This document shows positions 17,339 through 64,000 of a stretch of 64,000 nt of DNA, one piece after another. The number at the start of each line of letters is the position of its first letter. The stretch's first letter is position 1. The DNA comes from Podarcis muralis (Eukaryota). Location: contig NC_135657.1 of NCBI RefSeq assembly GCF_964188315.1, forward strand, positions 76,074,001 to 76,138,000. The letters run 5' to 3'. Below the pieces are notes generated by a model. It did no database searches. It was not told where the DNA came from and worked only from the letters and a program-made list of their open reading frames with translations. Both the position numbers and the translations under genes were made by a program.

Positions 17339-18595
17339 ATGTTTTTTTCTGCAATGCTGACGTCTGCTCATTCTGGGACATTCAATGCAACTTTTATTGT
17401 CTATGAAAATATGTACGCAAATATCACCACCCCCTCCTTCTTGGTTCGTAGTGGCACAACGCAGCCACTGAAATATCACTTGGGTGCCATGGTTATCACT
17501 GAGGTAACTACTCTGACAACCAACACTACAACTGCCCACCCATTGCAACCGGGCTCCAAGAGCTTAAGCCTGCCGCTCCAGGTAATTCTTTCTGCTGCCA
17601 TGATATTTATACTCCTCGTTTCTTTCCTTGGCAACCTTGTTGTCTGCCTAATGGTCTATCAGAAGACTGCAATGCGATCGGCTATTAACATTCTCCTCGC
17701 TAGCCTGGCTTTTGCAGACATGTTGCTTGCCGTGCTGAACATGCCTTTTGCTCTGATAACTGTCATCACAACCCGGTGGGTTTTTGGGAATATCTTCTGC
17801 AGAGTCTCGGCCATGTTTTTCTGGCTATTTGTCATCGAAGGGGTGGCCATTCTGCTTATCATTAGCATTGACAGGTTCCTTATAATAGTTCAGAGGCAGG
17901 ATAAGCTGAATCCATACCGGGCAAAGTTCCTCATTGCTGTCTCATGGGCTGCAGCCTTCGTAGTTGCTTTCCCGCTTTCTTTGGGAAACCCCAACCTGCT
18001 ACCTTCCAGAGCACCTCAGTGTGTGTTTGGCTACACAACAAGCCCTGGCTACCGTGCCTATGTGATACTGGTGGTACTGATTTCATTTTTCATCCCGTTC
18101 TTGGTAATGTTGTATTCTTTTATGGGCATCCTCAACACTGTACGGCACAACGCAGTTCGCATCCACAGCCACCCAGATAGCATATGCCTCAGCCAAGCTA
18201 GCAAACTTGGTCTCATGAGCCTTCAGAGACCCTTTCAGATGAACATTGATATGAGCTTTAAAACTCGTGCCTTCACCACCATATTGATTTTGTTCATTGT
18301 CTTCATAATCTGCTTGGCGCCCTTCACCACCTACAGCCTTATTGCCACATTCAACAGCCACTTCGATCAGAAGCACAACTTCTTCGAGATAAGCACTTGG
18401 CTCCTTTGGCTCTGCTACCTCAAGTCTGCCCTAAACCCATTGATTTACTACTGGAGGATCAAGAAATTTCACGATGCATGCTTAGACTTGATGCCGAAGT
18501 ACTTCAAGTTTTTGCCACAGCTACCTGGTCACACCAGAAGACGTATCCGGCCTAGCGCAGTATATGTGTGTGGGGAGCACCGGTCAGTTGTGTGA
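17339..18595 (+). CDS. GPR63: G protein-coupled receptor 63 (orphan class A GPCR), 418 aa, single coding exon
   Basis: True ATG at 17339; the track ORF starts 8 codons earlier on TTG. Seven hydrophobic segments with GN, LAFAD, DRF and NPLIY motifs. The C-terminus RRIRPSAVYVCGEHRSVV closely matches recalled human GPR63, and FHL5 synteny agrees. Confidence 0.97.
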   Translation: MFFSAMLTSAHSGTFNATFIVYENMYANITTPSFLVRSGTTQPLKYHLGAMVITEVTTLTTNTTTAHPLQPGSKSLSLPLQVILSAAMIFILLVSFLGNLVVCLMVYQKTAMRSAINILLASLAFADMLLAVLNMPFALITVITTRWVFGNIFCRVSAMFFWLFVIEGVAILLIISIDRFLIIVQRQDKLNPYRAKFLIAVSWAAAFVVAFPLSLGNPNLLPSRAPQCVFGYTTSPGYRAYVILVVLISFFIPFLVMLYSFMGILNTVRHNAVRIHSHPDSICLSQASKLGLMSLQRPFQMNIDMSFKTRAFTTILILFIVFIICLAPFTTYSLIATFNSHFDQKHNFFEISTWLLWLCYLKSALNPLIYYWRIKKFHDACLDLMPKYFKFLPQLPGHTRRRIRPSAVYVCGEHRSVV

Positions 18596-35200: not shown

Positions 35201-36741
35201 TTCATGTAATATGTTGCCAGTTATAAAATGAAGCTAGGCAAAGGCTCACAGCTGTAGATTCTTATTTTCTGCATGCCTTAGGGATGTCATGAGCATTCAA
35301 TCAAACATGCTTACAAAGCTGGTCAAATGCTTGCAAGGAAGATTGGTGTGACTACATCCCTGTGTGCTTGCTGAAATTCTGTGAGCCAACTCCATTGCCT
35401 CCCTTCAGCTGCAAGGCTCCTGAAAAAAATTACCTTGATGCTCGCGCAAAGGATGGCAACAGAAAGATGAGTGAGGGAACCACAAATGCACACAAATATG
35501 TACCTACTTTACTGAACCCAACATTTTTTGTGTTGGTGATTTTTCTTCAGGGGCACTGATTAAACAAAAAAGTTTTCTGTACTATCTCAGAGTCAGGGAA
35601 GATGCTGCAAATGAAGAATGGGTGTTTACAATGTAGATACAGATCTGCAAAAATGTAAGATGAATGAGCTCTTCGCCCCTGTGAGTTCACCATACTGAAA
35701 TGGTTATGGTGAATTCAACTATCTCATGAGCAGGCAAGCATAAAATGGTAAAGATTAAAGGATTAAAAATGCAGATAAAGTAAAGTGCTAGCTATGCAAT
35801 AGCACCTAGGAAGGCAGAATTGAAAAAACTGGCCAGTTCCAATTATTTAGCTTGAAAACTGGTTCTTAAGCAATTTAAAAGTTGTTCTTTGAAAGGAGGA
35901 GTAAATAATGTTGCTTTGATTAATTTCTTCTTTTTGCAGCAGCTTTTTTCATCTGGCTATTTCTGACCTACACTGTGTGGTAGGTGTGAACTGAGGTAAG
36001 CATTCTTTTACAAAATTACTTTTCTGCAGAACAATCAGCTGTCATTTTGTTCATTACGCCTTTCAAGATAGTGCTCAGGCTACACGGACAAAGCTTTTGT
36101 AGGAAGCCAGAAAGCATTCTACTAGATGTTTGAAAATAAACTCAAGAGAAGAATATGTGTAAGGAGGCAAGGTCTACTTTGAAGCTGTGATGTGCCTACC
36201 ATTCCAGTTTGTGAGTCGTCGTTAACAGAATTTTGGTTTGGAGCAGAGCTTGGCTAGGCCTTTTTGGCCATGGGCCACAACCCAGGTGATGATATGGTTG
36301 TGCAGAGCCAAGGCAGTCCCATGTAGCTCCTCTGAAATGCTACATTATATGCATGTTGATAACTGCTGTGCATTCTCATATTTACATAAAATATTGGTAT
36401 GTTTATGGATCCTTTGCCTCTCATATTAAATCTTCATTATGTTAGCTTTATACTTCATAATATGATAACAAGCAAAGAGCTCTGCTGTCTTTAGAAGCTC
36501 TGGGGAAGGGGAAATTAGAACATGTCCAACTTGTCATACACATGTATGACAAACTGCATCTTCTGAAATTCAACCTGCTGTACAACTGTATGGCAGTCAC
36601 TACACCTGATCTTTGATCTACAGCTAGGATGGGCAAATCTGTCAATTTGGATTTCCCTTTGTTTCTCATTTTACAAACTTTCATTCAGTTTTCATTTCCA
36701 CATCAGTCCCCCCTTTTTCACAAAAGAAGTCCTCGTGAAAA

Positions 36742-37126
36742 TGTTGGGAAACTGCCAGGGAGATATAGTCCATCATGGCCCCAAGCCGGCTGCCGGACTT
36801 CCATCGATCTCCCGTAGCCAGGCAGATCCAGCAGTTAGCGACACGAAGCCTTAGAAATAGATTGCCACATTCTAGGCTTGTGCACACTGTTCTTTATCAG
36901 CAGAAAACACAGCCAGAAAGCTTGCACCGAAGAAGAGCATAATTTACAGATTTTATTTAGCGTTGAACAGAACAAAGAGAAAACATGACCGTTCTGAGTC
37001 AGTGACTCCGACCGACTGAAATCGAAAGGAAACAGCAAGCATAAACATCCTGTGACTAGGACATGCGCAGACTCTGTGACTCTCAAAGCCTGCTCTCTCT
37101 TAAGGTGGAACGGAAATATCCTAACA
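36742..37126 (-). repeat. 3' LTR of the Copia element
   Basis: TGTTGGG...CCTAACA on the plus strand. No difference from 41454-41838 found by eye. Minus-strand AATAAA at 36952-36957. Confidence 0.97.
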
Positions 37127-40100
37127 TCCTCCCCCTTTCCGTGTAACCTGTTGTACCTGTGGTTCACTCAATTGCAACCTTTGTACATAAACCTTATGTT
37201 GTTCTCTGTTAACAACCTTAGACAACAGATCAGCAGGAATTTCGTTTCCTGGCATGTAGGACACCTGAATCAGTCCTTTCTGAATACACTCTCTTGCACG
37301 ATGTAGCTTAATCTGCAAGTACTTGGTTCTTTGCTTGCAACTCTCGGAGTTCAGCAAAGCCAAACACGATCTATTGTCTTGATACACTTGTATAGGACAT
37401 TTCACAGAAACCCCGATGTCCTTAAACAGTTGCATCAACCATTCACAATCCATGAGTGAAAATGACAGAGCATTGAGTTCTGCTTCACAGGAACTTAGGC
37501 TCACTGTTGTTTGCTTCCTGCACAACCAGTCAAACAGGCAGTGGTTGTACATGTAGCATACTCCAGAAGTGCTTGTACCATCTGTGGTGTCACTTCCAAA
37601 ACTTGCATCTGCAAAGATTTCAAGACCTCCAGTCTTCTGACTGGTGAACCTCAGCCTGTAGTGCATAGTCCCTTTCAAATAGCGGGCTATGCGCTTCAGA
37701 GCTTTCCAATCCTGAACCGTAGGATTGTTGGCATGTCTGCTAAGCAGATTACAGCTTACAGCTATGTCAGGTCTTGAACATCTGGCAATGAAATTCAGCT
37801 TACCTAGAATGCATCTGTACAGCGTTGTGTCAGAAAACGCTTCAGCAGTACTGTCTACCTGGTAACCTGTCACCATCGGTGTGTCTGCTGGGTTTGCATC
37901 AACCAAATTCAACCTGGTTAATACATCAGCAATTTTCTGTGTTTGGTGTACCAGAAAATTACCTGCTTGGTCCTTCTCCACCTGCAGAGAAAGATTGTTG
38001 GATACCTCACCAAGATCCTTCATGTCAAAGTGCTCCTTCAGCTGAGCTAGGGTGCTTTGATAGAAAGCCTGATTCTTCCAAAACATCAGAAGATCATCAA
38101 CAAAACATAAACAATACAGTTTGTTTTGCCCCTCCTCCTTGACAAACACACATGGATCAGCTTTGCCCTGGTGAAAACCTAGAGAAAGCAATGTCTCAGT
38201 GAGTTTTGTGTTCCAACACCTGGCACTCTGCTTGAGACCATATAAGGATTTCCGCAGTTTACAGACCATTCCCTTCTGTATCTGCATCCCGTCAGGTGGA
38301 AGCATAAACAGCTCCTCGTTCAAAATCCCGTACAAAAAAGCTGTATTAATGTCATGATGAGAAACATGCAGTTTCTCCTCCGCAGCGATCTTGAGCATCA
38401 GCCGAATGCTCTCATATTTGACTGTGGGTGAGTAGGTCTCGTGGTAATCCTGTCCTGGTACCTGTGAAAAACCTCTGGCAACCAATCTGGCTTTGTGTCT
38501 GACAACCTTGCCATTCTGGTCTGTCTTGGCCTTGAAGACCCATTTGCTGCCAACCAGTCTCATACCTGGGACTACCGGTACCAGCTCCCAAGTTTGGTTC
38601 CTGTTCAAGGAATCAACTTCAGCCTTCATGGCATTAAGCCAAGGCTCAGCATCTTTAGAGGTTAACTCCTGAACCTCTTTGAAGCTTGAAGGTTCCCATA
38701 CCTTCTCTGAGCTACTAAGAACAGCAGTTGCAGTCTTAGCAAACTCATCAGCAAATCTCTTAGGAGGTCTGCCTTTGGTCGCCCTTTCAGACCTACGTAC
38801 TAGACGCAAGTCTTCTGGACTCATCTCCTCTTTCTTAGGAGAAAAGTGACCAATGGTGAACAGTGGTTCTTCCAGTTCATTGTCAGACGCATCAGATGGT
38901 CTGACTGAGGCCTTTGCGCTCTGGTAGTCTGCTGTGTCATCACTGTCACTGACACCAGCAGCCGCACCGCCCACTGAACTGGAATCCGAACTCTGATCAT
39001 CATCATCATCATCATCATCATCCTCATCATCCTCAGCAGCTTCCTCAGCTTTAGCTGCTTGCTTGACATCACCTTCATCCTCCTCTGGGTAACTCTGGAA
39101 AATTCCCACATTTTCCCCCCACTTAGGATTGTACTCAACACTCCTTGTGAACTTTATGGATTTAGAGTCAGTCATCCATACCCTGTATGCACCTTTTTCG
39201 TACCCCATGAACAAACCATGTGCCCCACGCTTCCCAAGCTTGTTGGTTTGTGGGGTGCGTACCCACATGTCAGAACCAAAAATTCTCATGTGTTTGGTGT
39301 TGGGTTTCTTGCCAAACATCTTCTCATAGGGGGTACAACCAATGGGTGATGACAATCTGCGATTAATGGAGTAAACCAGATTTCCTAAAGCCTCCCCCCA
39401 AAACTTATCAGGGAGATTGGCATCATGCAACAAGGTTTTCATTCCTTGCAGCAATGTCTGATTTGCTCTCTCCGCAAGCCCATTCATCCATGGCGATCTG
39501 GGGGTTGACATGTCATGCTGGATTCCCTTCTCAGTCAGGAAAGCTTCAAACTGCTGAGAAGTGAATTCCCCGCCCCGATCGGTAAAAAGACAGGAAATAC
39601 GTTTACCGTGAGCATTCTCCAACCAAGCACAGAATGCCTTAAACTTCGGAAACGCTTGCGATTTCTGTTCGAGCAAAAACACATGAATGTACCTAGAAAA
39701 AGAATCAATTAGAACCATGAAGAACCTTGCTCCTCCTAAAGAGGGCGTAAGTGGCCCAACCAGGTCTGCGTGCACTAGCTGGTAGGGCTTGGAAGCCTGC
39801 CTGCTAGACACTTTGCCTTTTGGAGCAACCTTCACCTTGTTCTCAGCACAAGATACACATTTCATGTGATATTTACAGGGTTTGATGTTCAAACCCTCAA
39901 CCACCTCTGGCATCTTGGCCAGTGCCTTCCAAGAGAGGTGACCAAATCTTCGATGCGCTTCATGAATGCAACCTGCATGAAGAACTTTGTTAGTTTGTGC
40001 AACACAACAAGAATCAGCATTAGATACAACAGCAGTGTCCTCATAAGTTATATGGAACAAACCATCCATAAACTTTGCATGCAAATAGTCCTCTTTGCCT

Positions 40101-41212
40101 TTACTGATGACACAGACGCTCCTCTTGAAGGAAATCTGAAAACCACGTCCAGTAAGCTGCGGGACGCTCAACAAATTGCTTGCAGCTCCAGGAACATACA
40201 GAACATTACTGATGGTTGTATGCAAACTTGCAAGTTTCACAGTCCCTTCTCCTGCAATTTGCAACGTCCTTCCATCAGCCAGGTGGATCTCACCTTCCTG
40301 AGGCTTGAAAGAGATAAAGAGGTGCCGATCCTTTGAGATGTGGCGGGTACAGCCCGAATCAACAACAAAGCTGCCTTTGGCTGTTGGAGCAGCCTTCACA
40401 GCAAGCAAACCCTTGTTTTCCACTTGCTTGGGCTTTTGCAGCTTGCCCCCCTGCTGCTCCTGGCCAGCAGACGTGCCTTTAGCCTTTGGTGAAGCTGTGC
40501 CAGCAGACATAGCCTTGTCTTCCACTGGCGTGGGCTTTTGCAGCTTGCCCCCCTGCTTCTGGTCAGCAGACGTGCCTTTAGCCTTTGGTGAAGCAGTGCC
40601 AGCTAACAAAGCCTTGTTTTCCACTGGCGTGGGCTCTTCACCCTCCCTTCGCTCCTGGCCATCTGCAGATGTCTGCGTCTGCGTCTGTTTACCTTTGCCT
40701 TTCCGGCCTCTGCAAAGGCGATGACCTTGGTTCTCACGAGAAACAGAGCTCTCAGCTGCTGACTCCTTGGCTCCCCCTGGAGGCTGGAATGCTGCCTGGG
40801 ATGACGTGACGGTCAGCTCCCCCTGCAGCTTGCAACCGGTGCCCTCAGCATCCCTGCATTCACTCGCATTCTGGGAAACAGCTTGGACCTCCGATGCAGT
40901 CAAACTCTGGGCTGGGACGACTGAGTTGTGAGCTTTCATCAAAGCATACCACATTCCACGTGCAGTGGTGTTGCCAGCCAGCGTCTTAATTTCCTCAAGA
41001 GATACGGATAAGACTATTACGTCAATCGCCCTCGAATTCTGGGCCTCCCATTTCTCTGTCAGAGGAACTGGGGGGGCTTGAGACACAGTATGCCACACTC
41101 CATACTGACGCAGCAAACTCTCACACCATTTTGCCCAGGTCTGATAATTGTGCCGATTTAACTTTGGGCACTCAGTGGCCTCTGAAGCTTCAAAAGCGTG
41201 GAAAAACTCCAT
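37121..41212 (-). CDS. Copia Gag-Pol polyprotein, 1363 aa, uninterrupted
   Basis: ATG at 41212. Gag N-terminus PKLNRHNYQTW; protease VVDSGCTRH (D285, 40358-40360); HRRFGH/CVSC zinc domain; integrase HADLVGP, TDRGGEF, NGLAER; RT KARLVARGFSQ, YGLKQ, FVDDLL (38093-38104); RNase H FADAS, SCEAE, YQDN, ADLLSK. Confidence 0.97.
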   Translation of the reverse strand: MEFFHAFEASEATECPKLNRHNYQTWAKWCESLLRQYGVWHTVSQAPPVPLTEKWEAQNSRAIDVIVLSVSLEEIKTLAGNTTARGMWYALMKAHNSVVPAQSLTASEVQAVSQNASECRDAEGTGCKLQGELTVTSSQAAFQPPGGAKESAAESSVSRENQGHRLCRGRKGKGKQTQTQTSADGQERREGEEPTPVENKALLAGTASPKAKGTSADQKQGGKLQKPTPVEDKAMSAGTASPKAKGTSAGQEQQGGKLQKPKQVENKGLLAVKAAPTAKGSFVVDSGCTRHISKDRHLFISFKPQEGEIHLADGRTLQIAGEGTVKLASLHTTISNVLYVPGAASNLLSVPQLTGRGFQISFKRSVCVISKGKEDYLHAKFMDGLFHITYEDTAVVSNADSCCVAQTNKVLHAGCIHEAHRRFGHLSWKALAKMPEVVEGLNIKPCKYHMKCVSCAENKVKVAPKGKVSSRQASKPYQLVHADLVGPLTPSLGGARFFMVLIDSFSRYIHVFLLEQKSQAFPKFKAFCAWLENAHGKRISCLFTDRGGEFTSQQFEAFLTEKGIQHDMSTPRSPWMNGLAERANQTLLQGMKTLLHDANLPDKFWGEALGNLVYSINRRLSSPIGCTPYEKMFGKKPNTKHMRIFGSDMWVRTPQTNKLGKRGAHGLFMGYEKGAYRVWMTDSKSIKFTRSVEYNPKWGENVGIFQSYPEEDEGDVKQAAKAEEAAEDDEDDDDDDDDDQSSDSSSVGGAAAGVSDSDDTADYQSAKASVRPSDASDNELEEPLFTIGHFSPKKEEMSPEDLRLVRRSERATKGRPPKRFADEFAKTATAVLSSSEKVWEPSSFKEVQELTSKDAEPWLNAMKAEVDSLNRNQTWELVPVVPGMRLVGSKWVFKAKTDQNGKVVRHKARLVARGFSQVPGQDYHETYSPTVKYESIRLMLKIAAEEKLHVSHHDINTAFLYGILNEELFMLPPDGMQIQKGMVCKLRKSLYGLKQSARCWNTKLTETLLSLGFHQGKADPCVFVKEEGQNKLYCLCFVDDLLMFWKNQAFYQSTLAQLKEHFDMKDLGEVSNNLSLQVEKDQAGNFLVHQTQKIADVLTRLNLVDANPADTPMVTGYQVDSTAEAFSDTTLYRCILGKLNFIARCSRPDIAVSCNLLSRHANNPTVQDWKALKRIARYLKGTMHYRLRFTSQKTGGLEIFADASFGSDTTDGTSTSGVCYMYNHCLFDWLCRKQTTVSLSSCEAELNALSFSLMDCEWLMQLFKDIGVSVKCPIQVYQDNRSCLALLNSESCKQRTKYLQIKLHRARECIQKGLIQVSYMPGNEIPADLLSKVVNREQHKVYVQRLQLSEPQVQQVTRKGGGC
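37127..37140 (-). promoter_or_regulatory. Polypurine tract
   Basis: Minus-strand GGAAAGGGGGAGGA directly abutting the 3' LTR start TGTTAG. Confidence 0.9.
40411..40635 (-). repeat. Coding tandem repeat in Gag (102- and 99-bp units, about 2.3 copies)
   Basis: Units start at 40411, 40513 and 40612 on the plus strand. Peptide unit: PTPVE(N/D)KA..AGTASPKAKGTSA.Q.QGGKLQK. Confidence 0.95.
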
Positions 41213-41435
41213 TCCAGCTTTTTACTTGAGCCGTGAGCCTTTATGCCTTCTTATCTCGGCAGCTCATTAATCACGATGCCTTTTGGCTCGGCTCCCAGGC
41301 CAATTAAGCCTTGCCGGACATCAAAGGCTCCTTGTTGAGGTAAACAGAAAAGCCTCCGCTCTCGCTGCTTTCGCTTTTCACATACCTCTCAAACGCAGTC
41401 TGTTGCAGCTTTACTCTCCTGTAGGTGCTGTGAAT

Positions 41436-41449
41436 CTGGGCCCGAAACC
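41436..41449 (-). promoter_or_regulatory. Putative primer-binding site, variant of the copia half-tRNA-iMet type
   Basis: Minus-strand GGTTTCGGGCCCAG versus canonical GGTTATGGGCCCAG (12/14), lying 4 nt inside the 5' LTR. Confidence 0.7.
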
Positions 41450-41453
41450 TTGT

Positions 41454-41838
41454 TGTTGGGAAACTGCCAGGGAGATATAGTCCATCATGGCCCCAAGCCG
41501 GCTGCCGGACTTCCATCGATCTCCCGTAGCCAGGCAGATCCAGCAGTTAGCGACACGAAGCCTTAGAAATAGATTGCCACATTCTAGGCTTGTGCACACT
41601 GTTCTTTATCAGCAGAAAACACAGCCAGAAAGCTTGCACCGAAGAAGAGCATAATTTACAGATTTTATTTAGCGTTGAACAGAACAAAGAGAAAACATGA
41701 CCGTTCTGAGTCAGTGACTCCGACCGACTGAAATCGAAAGGAAACAGCAAGCATAAACATCCTGTGACTAGGACATGCGCAGACTCTGTGACTCTCAAAG
41801 CCTGCTCTCTCTTAAGGTGGAACGGAAATATCCTAACA
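41454..41838 (-). repeat. 5' LTR of the Copia element
   Basis: 385 bp and apparently identical to 36742-37126. Confidence 0.97.
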
Positions 41839-41993
41839 GAAAATTCATCAACATTTTTCTGGGCATTTCTCAGAAATGTTTGTATGCAATTTCCCTAATA
41901 TATGCATTTCTCCCCCAATACAATGCATTTTGGAATGTTATTGTCACTAATAAATGCATTTCTATGTACATTTTAATTTAGTATATGCATTTT

Positions 41994-55704: not shown

Positions 55705-55856
55705 CTATGCGGTGCTCCCGCACTTGCAGCAGAGGATCTCATCCTGCTGGGTTAGGAATCCTTTTCCCACCAGTGAGCTGGAACATTTCCCACACTTAAA
55801 GCAGTCACTGTGCCACTGGCGATCCTCAAATGAGATAAATTTGGCTTCGCCGAGAG
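55705..55856 (-). CDS. FHL5: FHL5 last coding exon (LIM4 C-terminal part; absent from the ORF track)
   Basis: Acceptor TTTTCTCTTCATAG|, phase matches the preceding exon. Reads (A)LGEAKFISFEDRQWHSDCFKCGKCSSSLVGKGFLTQQDEILCCKCGSTA*, TAG at 55705-55707. Confidence 0.95.
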
Positions 55857-56167
55857 CTATGAAGAGAAAACATGGAGATGAAAAGTGGGGCTGTGAGTGC
55901 CTTTTAGCAGATCACAAAGGCAGTAACTTATGCTCTAATAAGCAAAGTCCCTTCCTTCTTCCTTTAATAAATGTCAAAACCTGAGCTAAATGAAGTGAAG
56001 CTGCCATACACTGAGGCAAATTAGTTCCATCTAAAAATCTAAATAGGACTCTCTCACCCCTTGTTATGTCATGTCCACTGAGGGCTCCCAGATTAAATAA
56101 AACTCCCAGTTATCCTGATATATGGAAACTGGAGAAAAATTGGATCAATGAACACATGTGATTCATT

Positions 56168-60590: not shown

Positions 60591-61790
60591 CTATTGGATG
60601 ATAAAGGAGCATTTGTAGTCAGATGCTGAACTTGGGCATTAAGTACAAAACCAAAGGTTAATAAGCACCACACTTCCTTGGTTAATTTATAAAAAGAGAG
60701 GGATGCTGAATATCCAGCGTACTTGGGAGTCACCCCACGATCAAGGAAAATGTCACTCCGGTTCTCTGTAGCAAGGGGAAAAGGCACTCTACACATGCTC
60801 AGAAGAATTATTTTCTTTTTTATTACTAATGTCCAACAGGGTTGGCTCTGAGACTATTCCTACAGAAACAGCTGCTGGTTGTAAAGGAGAAATGGATAAG
60901 AGGCTGCTGGACTGCCAACAGGAAATGCAGCATTGAGATTTTTAGAAGTATACTTAAACAGAAGGGCTCTGGCTTGGTGTTATATTGTGGAATTGCGTGG
61001 GTAGATGGACAGCTGAAGCATACTTTCAAGACAATCCAATGTATGCCAACCAGAAGTCCCACTGTGCCCAATGGACCACTTCCTAATAAGTGGTTTTAGG
61101 ACTGAAGCCTTCATATGATTTTCTCTCTAACAGTACAATCTTATATATGTCCATTCAGAAGTCTAATTGTGTCAAATGGGAGTTATTCCCAATAATGACA
61201 CACCTGTGCCTCCTAGATTAGGCTTTCCCAACCTTGTGTCCTCCAATGTTGTTGACTACAACTTCCAACATCCCTCACCACTGGGTCTGATGGCTGGGAC
61301 CCAAAGTTGGAAAATACTGCACTAAATGATGACTTGGGGGGGGCACCCATCTTGTATCCCATAAGGTGCTCCTGAAATGTAAAATGCACCATTGAATGCA
61401 TTGTTGGTGCTATTAGCATTCACCTTCTGCACACCTGTTCACCGCATGTAATTTTGACAATGGAAACAGATTCAGAGTATCTGCTTCCTCCCATCTCTTG
61501 GCAGTGAATTCTATCAAACCTGAGGATGTTTGCATCAGGGTCATTGTAAGAAAGAATATTTTTTGGTTTGTTAACAAACATTATACTGCTTAATATGAAG
61601 AGGGGTTTAAAGGTAATTATGGTCTCATGAATTATCTGAAGGAGTGCATTGCAGAGGGTGGCTGCTGTCACCAAGAGTGTCTGCTTCTCCTTTGTGGACA
61701 AATGACAACCCCCTGTTTGTGGAATGGTTCATTGTGATCACCTATCTCTCCACCCCCACTGCCCCAGTATTTTTCATTTCCTTCAATTAC

Positions 61791-61960
61791 CTTTTTGCAG
61801 GAGTAACAACACTGAGCAAATTGCTTCTCAAAACAAGGCACACAATAATTGTCGTTGTCCTTGGTAATCAAAGGCTTTGTCCCTAGCGGCTGCCGACAGT
61901 GTTGGCAAACAAAGCAAGCTTCGTGCCAACAACTTCCTTTAAACTCCATTTTGCGAGAAC
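61791..61960 (-). CDS. FHL5: FHL5 internal coding exon, 170 nt (LIM2 to LIM3 start)
   Basis: TTTTGCAG|GTTCT ... AAAAG|GTAATT. Reads SRKMEFKGSCWHEACFVCQHCRQPLGTKPLITKDNDNYCVPCFEKQFAQCCYSCKK. FHL5 is preferred over FHL2 from adjacency to GPR63. Confidence 0.96.
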
Positions 61961-64000
61961 CTGCAAAACCAATCATGAAACCTGACAGATTATTGGCCGG
62001 CTGGGAATGCTGTATTAAAAACTGTGCTAAAACAGTATGGTTAGGATATTATTTCTTCATTATCAATAATAGCACAACAGCCCCAGTTCAGCCAAGCACA
62101 GAAACTCATGGTTAAATTAAAGTTTTAATGTCAAAGTGAAATTGCCATCTCAAAACTAATCAAAGGACATAAAAATAAGATATAGGGAGGTAAGGTATTA
62201 ATATGTCCGATAGGGAAAGACATAATAATACATGTGGAGGTCTTTGCAGTTTTCCATATTTGTTTCAACAGATTTTCTTCGAAGTCTATGTACGCATTAC
62301 TGCTTTATTCTGCCTCAAGCATACACCCACCACAGGTGTTTGAAGCTGAGGAAACTTGACGTTAGTCACAGTCCATAGGTATCTTGCAGCATCTTGAAAA
62401 ATACCCTGGTGTGATGTGCTTTCCTTCAAATCAATTTCCGCAGAAGCCCTGGTTAAACTGAGGTGCGTACATTTGAGACAGCCATTGCACATGTGCGAAC
62501 GATGATGCGTGTGCAGATGAGAGCAGACACACAGATGACAGCTTCAGTGAATTGGAGTTTGTTGCAGGGAAGCAAATGAAGAAATGGACATTGGGTGTAG
62601 ACATCCCCCTTCTGGTCTGTACAGCAATGTTTTAGGTAAAAATCAGGAGCTTAAGTAAATCAGCAACATATTGCAGCTAGTTTGTCTAATCCTGAGCTGT
62701 TTTCTAAGTTTAGCCTAAATGGAATACTATAACACTTAATGGAAAATATTTTCAATTGACTATTGAAAATAAATGCAAAGACATTAGTTAACCAAGACTT
62801 TCCAACACCTCCTCTTCAAGGACTTGAAATAGCATGGTTTGAAATTGCAGTACAGGGGAAGCTTTACATAGAGGAGGAAGGCAGTTCAGGAAAATAGCTG
62901 TTTTGTACAAGTGGTAATTGAATATAGGGTAAGTATAATGAAAACAATGAGGTTCTAATTAGCTCCAAGTCCTGGGAAGCATTAAACTCCTATAGCCAGT
63001 GCTTGTGTGAATTGAGCACCTTTTCAAGACTCTTGTATCTTATGCTGGAAAGTGTCAACACTGCATTATTCCATTTTAGCTTCATGTTGGGTCTACAAAT
63101 TATTTCATCACTGCACTTTACCTGTACCAATAAACAATTTTTAGCAAGCCTATTATCCTCCTTTTTTAAAAAAGTTGATTAGTAGTAGAGGAAAATTGCT
63201 GTATATATGTGATAAGCTGAAATAAAACTCTGCTGTGAAACAAGCAGCCAAAAATAAGGTTGCCATCACATCTCTGTATCAGAACCAAGCAACAAAGAAT
63301 GCAAGAGTCCAAACCTCCCTGCATTTTTTTAGTAGTTGTGGGGGTTCTCTGGGGTTTACTGGAGAAGTGGCACAGGGTAGATGGACGGTCTTAGTCCTTT
63401 GTGCCTACACTGCTCCCCCAATCTAAATGTTCCCCTGAGGCTGGTACTGGGCTCACGGTGGGGATGTATGGGTACCTCAATAAAATTTTGAAAAGTTGTG
63501 AAATCCAGTGATGGTTCTATGCCAGACTTTATGGTATCACATGTAGTTTGGCTCTCACATCACTGCACTGCCCACTGTCTCTGTGACCCTTCTGATTGCA
63601 TCTGACTAGGCTGCTTGAATTAAAAGAAACTAGCTACCTATCACTATCAGTGCTTCATACCTTCAGCCATAGTTGTCTAAATTCAGCTGCCGAATCCCAT
63701 TCCTAAATCAACTCACAGGACTCAGCTATACAGCTGCAAATATAACGTCTTAGGTGTGTTTTAAGTGCATTATACAAATATGACATTAGATGGCGATGGT
63801 GAGCTTATGGCAAATTCAATATATTTTTCAAAACACTTTTTTAAAAAAGCACTTTCACAGTGTTTTTTTAAAAATTTGTGTATAGATTCCACCACAGTCA
63901 CGTTGGTCTTCCAATTTATTCAGAAGGGACCATAAGTACAGCTTAGACAGATTTAACATTAAGCATACTAATTTAATTGTGTGACTGCTACTAGTGTCCA

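Follow-up and report, generated by a model that had tools for sequence, protein, structure and literature searches.

A young Ty1/Copia family of the wall lizard Podarcis muralis in which most copies keep half a capsid and a complete Pol, and are probably mobilised by full-Gag sisters

Copia elements are present in reptiles (PMC4350176), and a young, active Copia family in squamates has already been published in the corn snake, where 85 near-identical copies are reported and are probably active (PMC11948899, PMC4657000) and where the family is the cause of the OCA2 amelanistic and CLCN2 stripe alleles (PMC4657000, PMC11948899). That element is 5832 bp long; our comparison is with its description, and the available accounts mention no split into autonomous and non-autonomous types. 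The Drosophila copia type (Ty1/Copia, Pseudoviridae, Hemivirus-like priming) has a single frame with the order protease, integrase, reverse transcriptase and RNase H (PR-IN-RT-RH), TG...CA long terminal repeats (LTRs), a 5-bp duplication and a primer-binding site (PBS) on the anticodon arm of the initiator tRNA. Its capsid comprises an N-terminal domain (NTD, residues 1–90), which forms the capsomer spokes, and a C-terminal domain (CTD, residues 91–186); as far as the source describes it, shell assembly needs RNA binding by the zinc finger, and Gag without the finger is blocked alone and co-assembles with the wild type (PMC11835246). Defective relatives of LTR elements are described in mouse and barley. 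In IAP 1delta1 of the mouse, an internal deletion yields an open gag-pol fusion that is non-autonomous and dominates new insertions, and the fusion protein is reported to act in cis (PMC6466679). Barley BARE-2, a Gag-defective Copia element that retains Pol, is described as borrowing the capsid of its sister BARE-1 (PMC4350172).

We analysed an insertion in a 64,000-nucleotide stretch of the Podarcis muralis genome (contig NC_135657.1, positions 76,074,001 to 76,138,000), here called the window. The insertion shares with Drosophila copia the single frame, its domain order, the LTR ends, the 5-bp duplication and the position of the PBS, and the full-type Gag of its family aligns to the copia capsid (PDB 8vvw, 8s41), whereas the window copy has lost its zinc knuckle and most of the CTD, has two PBS mismatches at the anticodon and carries FVDD in its reverse transcriptase. 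As in IAP 1delta1, a deletion has made an in-frame gag-pol fusion that outnumbers its putative helper among young copies. However, IAP is a class II endogenous retrovirus, whereas the window element has a Copia reverse transcriptase and domain order; and the 1.9-kb deletion of IAP 1delta1 includes pol, so that both Gag and Pol are needed in trans, whereas here 210 capsid bases are lost and Pol is complete and constrained. BARE-2 is described as having no Gag, whereas the window copy encodes half a capsid in frame from the start codon, apparently under selection and in a vertebrate host. Full-Gag sisters of this short type exist, with a predicted helper role, and recombine with it; unlike BARE-2 and BARE-1, the two types share one recombining pool of pol and LTR sequences. 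In the literature covered we found no account of a vertebrate Copia element with the capsid CTD deleted and Pol complete; subscription journals and Repbase lay mostly outside this scope, and the family may be catalogued there.

The element is intergenic; about 18 kb separate it from the end of GPR63 and 14 kb from the closest LIM-domain exon identified. The 418-aa GPR63 of the window shows 3–9 differences from its Podarcis, Zootoca and Lacerta counterparts, 20 from Rhineura and 32 from Salvator; it clusters with lacertid proteins, in keeping with the squamate host proposed in the preliminary description. GPR45 and a TGFBRAP1 intron were considered as neighbouring host genes and dropped, the gene being GPR63. 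The 101 stop-to-stop frames near the element gave a single clear host domain, the LIM exon at 55.7 kb; by synteny, the LIM-domain exons are probably those of FHL5.

The insertion lies on the minus strand. The preliminary description had matched its LTRs by eye, and exact alignment of 36742–37126 with 41454–41838 gave 385 identical bases out of 385; the termini are TG...CA, GAAAA abuts both ends, and the duplication, PBS and polypurine tract claimed earlier were all located. Also borne out was the stop-free frame of 1363 aa (ATG to stop, 41212–37121, minus strand), whose stop codon lies within the 3' LTR and whose open Pol contains the PR, IN, RT and RH catalytic motifs (motif scan). Along this frame Pfam places Gag, the protease barrel, pre-integrase, rve, SH3 and RVT_2; integrase precedes reverse transcriptase, which is the Ty1/Copia arrangement, and the earlier assignment stands on this PR-IN-RT-RH order and the RVT_2 match. 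The reverse transcriptase active site reads FVDD instead of the usual YVDD in 25/25 copies compared. The features of the window are as follows.

17339-18595, plus strand: GPR63, single-exon coding sequence
36737..36741, no strand: target-site duplication GAAAA, left (sequence)
36742..37126, minus strand: 3' LTR, 385 bp, same as the 5' LTR, contains the polyprotein stop codon (alignment)
37127..37141, minus strand: polypurine tract, unchanged in 25/25 copies
37121..41212, minus strand: one uninterrupted frame of 1363 aa in which a short Gag is joined to complete Pol (frame and Pfam)
37163..37645, minus strand: RNase H, approximate, D, E, D, D motifs (motif scan; no Pfam match)
37871..38599, minus strand: reverse transcriptase, Copia type, FVDD (RVT_2, full length, E 3e-67)
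39128..40015, minus strand: integrase with HHCC finger, DDE core and SH3-like domain (Pfam and motif scan)
40139..40369, minus strand: aspartic protease, DSG motif (Pfam and motif scan)
40370..40696, minus strand: Lys/Gly/Gln-rich linker of ~33-aa tandem units, unit count differing among copies, dN/dS ~1
40697..40927, minus strand: what is left of the final capsid helix, with a degenerate zinc knuckle (no CX2CX4HX4C)
40927..40928, minus strand: junction of the in-frame 70-codon deletion in the capsid C-terminal domain
40928..41161, minus strand: capsid N-terminal domain, kept, 56% identical to the NTD of the full-Gag sisters
41436..41449, minus strand: PBS, 4 bases from the LTR, 12/14 bases pairing with the initiator tRNA-Met anticodon arm
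41454..41838, minus strand: 5' LTR, 385 bp
41839..41843, no strand: target-site duplication GAAAA, right (sequence)
55708-55911 and 61668-61976, minus strand: LIM-domain exons

The predicted primer is the anticodon arm encoded by the initiator tRNA-Met genes of the host. Across the family, and in both Gag types, 22 of 94 copies have a perfect PBS and 69 of 94 carry the two mismatches at the tRNA anticodon; among the 100 host matches listed there was no variant anticodon arm that matches them. This pattern suggests that the primer does not serve as a template for PBS repair. The protease also occurs as two alleles that differ by about 10% at the DNA level (DSGC and DSGA; window 40139-40369 compared with L003, L011-L014 and L020) and segregate in both Gag types. 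In addition, contigs from other samples exit the LTR or polypurine tract at 37053-37131 into unrelated sequence, and depth over the LTR exceeds internal depth; solo LTRs or non-coding derivatives with the same LTR are likely to exist.

The preliminary description called the copy intact, which does not hold for its capsid. The window Gag covers positions 1-84 of the 172 in Retrotran_gag_2 and has no CCHC knuckle, the first two cysteines and the spacing being gone, whereas the Gag of the full-type sisters covers positions 5-171 and has the knuckle; a longer Gag with a knuckle was present in 3 of the best 25 genome matches. Residues 94-163 of the full Gag (70 residues, 210 bases) are missing in-frame. 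Residues 16-178 of the full Gag align without gaps onto residues 11-173 of the Drosophila Copia capsid, which puts the deletion at Copia 89-158. An alignment-based structure prediction of the full Gag (pLDDT 89.8; a single-sequence fold, at pLDDT 44, was left unused) gave 8vvw and 8s41 as its best fold matches. In this model the last NTD helix stops at residue 93, one residue before the deletion begins, and helices 98-110, 119-135 and 142-151 and most of 155-165 are removed, so the deletion starts at the NTD/CTD boundary and takes most of the capsid CTD. Of the properties of an autonomous Copia element, the window copy thus has the open catalytic Pol and lacks the two-domain capsid and the CCHC knuckle. 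The close outgroups (P0001 and a second Copia family) all have a full Gag. The deletion is not recent, because older, broken copies, with a Gag head 74% identical, share it.

A genome-wide census with short sequence tags (at most one mismatch; control tags gave 0 matches) returned 304 short-Gag, 26 full-Gag and ~420 RT matches, so that by tag count the short type outnumbers the full type ~12:1. We then sampled 60 loci, of which 59 were RT-tag matches taken in their order along the genome and one was a short-tag match, leaving out seven already-sampled short-type matches and four clustered matches on contig C2; 56 were short, 2 full and 2 without Gag. In 33 of the 50 short copies that retain both LTRs, no substitution separates the pair (terminal 5-6 bases excluded); 6 of the 50 have an indel between the LTRs and 37 retain a frame of at least 1300 aa; mean LTR divergence in the short sample is 0.15-0.20%. 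Full-Gag loci were examined for 25 of the 26 tags: 23 have two LTRs, 11 show no substitution and 15 have an open frame. The size of the family and the many unsubstituted LTR pairs bear out the earlier proposal of recent activity. The claim that the window insertion is very young stands as a young insertion in a young family, but its own LTR pair, with 0/385 differences, sets an upper limit of no less than 0.78% (95%) on divergence, and it is the family, more than the window copy, that speaks for a very young age. At a rate of 1-3 substitutions per billion sites per year, the 0.78% bound would put the insertion at under about 1–4 million years. The window LTRs match each other, yet no other copy examined has LTRs identical to them (closest 99.5%); this rules out assembly collapse, the objection raised in the preliminary description, as the source of their identity. 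As a separate observation, one small contig, G000:C20 (30.4 Mb), holds 12 of the 26 full-Gag tags as well as the majority of older full-Gag remnants, and several of its full-Gag copies are duplicates of one old insertion (common CCTTC duplication, 12-15 LTR mismatches). Our guess is that this contig might be the W chromosome, serving as a helper refuge.

The two types differ sharply within Gag, with no fixed difference elsewhere. We compared 57 open copies of the short type with 14 of the full type, after setting aside two segmental duplicates and an old full copy, and found 142 fixed differences between short and full copies, all of them in codons 28-184, and none in the LTR, the UTR or pol. 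Between the types, dS reaches about 1.0-1.2 in that block, as against 0.04-0.13 in pol, where values within and between Gag types are equal. All four combinations with Gag type occur for 166/166 common pol SNPs and 55/57 LTR SNPs, mean r2 between pol SNPs and Gag type is 0.016 (0.014 is expected under free shuffling), and linkage falls with distance. The nearest sampled relative of the window copy is 2.0% different, so each copy is its own mosaic. A known cause of such mosaics, according to the description available, is recombination between co-packaged RNAs (PMC6894440), and co-packaging of both RNA types would produce the shuffling of pol and LTR seen here, part of which could be accounted for by ectopic gene conversion.

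The short frame appears to be under selection. Of 17 indel classes common to at least two of 64 short copies, 15 are in frame and the other two lie at the end of the frame; singleton indels are in frame in 21 of 31 cases. This test is weakened by the many in-frame indels that add or remove whole repeat units, since a unit spans a multiple of three bases in any case. Among variants shared by short copies and absent from full ones, pN/pS is 0.36 in the NTD (binomial p 0.002), 0.74 in the remnant (p 0.31) and 1.17 in the linker (p 0.70); the NTD variants fall in haplotype blocks, which makes the p value too favourable, and full-type lineages now lost may have contributed some of them. Compared with an outgroup, the short NTD has 8 changes, about twice the 4-5 of the full NTD, so constraint on the short NTD is relaxed. 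Overall, the variant pattern shows what appears to be purifying selection on the NTD of the short type, in a frame kept open.

Four raw RNA runs bearing the species label of the host (tissue not given) were mapped on a full-Gag copy, 6-12% of each run being read, and in the bins specific to the full capsid the depth was 0 in 4/4 runs. In the two stranded bulk runs, nearly all reads are in the sense direction, with a depth mostly of 5-29 across pol. Reads that reach the edge of the Gag block continue as short-type sequence (at one edge, 13 and 7 reads), and the Gag reads of the four runs were of the short type only. Such a signal might stem from a few loci or from read-through. At L088:3363-4908, 4 RNA reads with 2 starts, all from one run, skip 1544 bases bounded by GT..AG, from integrase into RT; as a splice this joint is too weak to call, a deleted genomic copy being the alternative.

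The explanation we consider likely is that the short type is a non-autonomous Copia element mobilised in trans by its full-Gag sisters, and that the NTD-Pol fusion helps to bring its own RNA into helper capsids. That the short type depends on a helper capsid is very probable; that the retained NTD has a working role is less secure, though more likely than not. A short copy would be translated as an NTD-Pol fusion and, without most of the CTD and the knuckle, would be unable to build its own particle; NTD-NTD contacts might then insert the fusion into the helper lattice, bringing its own enzymes and probably its own RNA. Both RNA types would meet inside one full-Gag particle and recombine by template switching, half an initiator tRNA would prime reverse transcription, and integration would yield the 5-bp duplication. 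The ~12:1 excess of the short type likely arises because short copies ride in the particles of complete copies. A more speculative and rather improbable extension would have the family split into two long-lived, co-dependent Gag alleles on a shared recombining genome, the rare one donating capsid and the common one enzymes, with the trimmed NTD of the latter as a dedicated docking module for Pol. If true, such a split would replace splicing or frameshifting in setting the Gag:Pol ratio, and a vertebrate germ line would harbour a retrotransposon with two components and a multipartite-like organisation.

The short type may instead be a passive passenger, its RNA packaged by helper Gag through LTR or UTR signals, with the NTD serving only as a translation lead-in for Pol or as an RNA stabiliser. 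We regard this as possible but doubtful. It fits the lack of any fixed LTR or UTR difference from the helper and the short NTD being just 56% identical to that of the helper and faster-changing, and Pol requires an open frame whatever the NTD does; yet the deletion spares the NTD precisely up to its last helix, and the depletion of nonsynonymous short-only variants in the NTD is not found in the neighbouring remnant and linker of the same frame. That capsids come from the more numerous second Copia family with a full Gag, and not from the 26 sisters, is quite unlikely. That family has more than 100 matches, frames of ~1355 aa, a CCHC knuckle and near-identical LTR pairs, and transcripts of the full-type sisters were not seen in the four RNA runs; however, its LTR has no blastn match to the window LTR and its RT is 80% and its NTD 38% identical, whereas the sisters and the short type draw on one pool of pol and LTR sequences. 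The unrelated LTR and the 38% NTD identity make the sisters the likelier donors.

We consider it very unlikely that the short Gag is a dominant-negative brake like Ty1 p22, the spread of the short type being a by-product, even though a half-capsid protein could poison lattices and full-Gag copies are few. Ty1 p22 is the C-terminal half, as PDB titles agree, whereas the short Gag retains the N-terminal half, joined to a complete, constrained Pol. Hundreds of young insertions also argue that no brake is effective, although the copy-number control described for Ty1 offers a precedent (PMC8458377). Autonomy, with the NTD and basic linker sufficing for particles, is most improbable: the short type is the young, transcribed majority and has every catalytic motif, but Copia shells, as described, require CTD-CTD contacts and the zinc finger (PMC11835246), full-Gag sisters persist and recombine with the short type, and no close outgroup lacks a full Gag.

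If short copies are mobilised by the sisters, the pair offers a natural system for asking how a defective LTR element can outnumber its helper without losing it. The window copy is one of hundreds and lies between genes, and it is the structure of the family that counts. Pipelines that call autonomy from two LTRs and a long frame would misfile about nine in ten copies of this family, as happened to the window copy in the preliminary description. Copia capsid structures now exist, and testable predictions on capsid co-assembly and cis preference follow from where the deletion begins, from the constraint on the NTD and from the shuffling in pol.

The family is a second young squamate Copia system, and wall lizards may carry segregating insertions that stem from it. 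On the left flank of the window insertion, contigs from four runs end at ~36706-36710, short of the junction; the flank in one other sample shows 19 substitutions in 876 bases. This flank divergence exceeds the limit set by the LTRs; the insertion therefore probably arose after the host haplotypes had separated, and probably segregates.

The phylogenetic check on horizontal transfer proposed in the preliminary description gave no sign of a recent event. The nearest named relative of the family is a protein of the lizard Elgaria (60%), after which identity drops to ~40%. A quick RT-RH tree, with thin sampling, joins the family, P0001 and the Elgaria protein into a group (support 100, stem 1.52) that is well separated from the elements of nematodes, arthropods and plants; the long branch (1.52) to everything outside this lizard-containing clade speaks against recent transfer from invertebrates, and the tree fits long residence in squamates.

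The second young Copia family (L147-L158, L160, L161; e.g. G000:C4:1996300-2002900) has 311-bp LTRs unrelated to the window LTR and a PBS often with one extra base; with its full Gag and knuckle, it made up more than 100 of the 150 matches scored. A dispersed repeat (L137-L144) carries ~30 bases of initiator tRNA-Met beside a ...GCGACA end and looks like another LTR family, with what would be an unusually long PBS. Finally, G000:C2:116187000-116193000 (L145) is a tRNA cluster with four tRNA-Met(CAT) genes together with Val, Glu, Asp and Asn genes.
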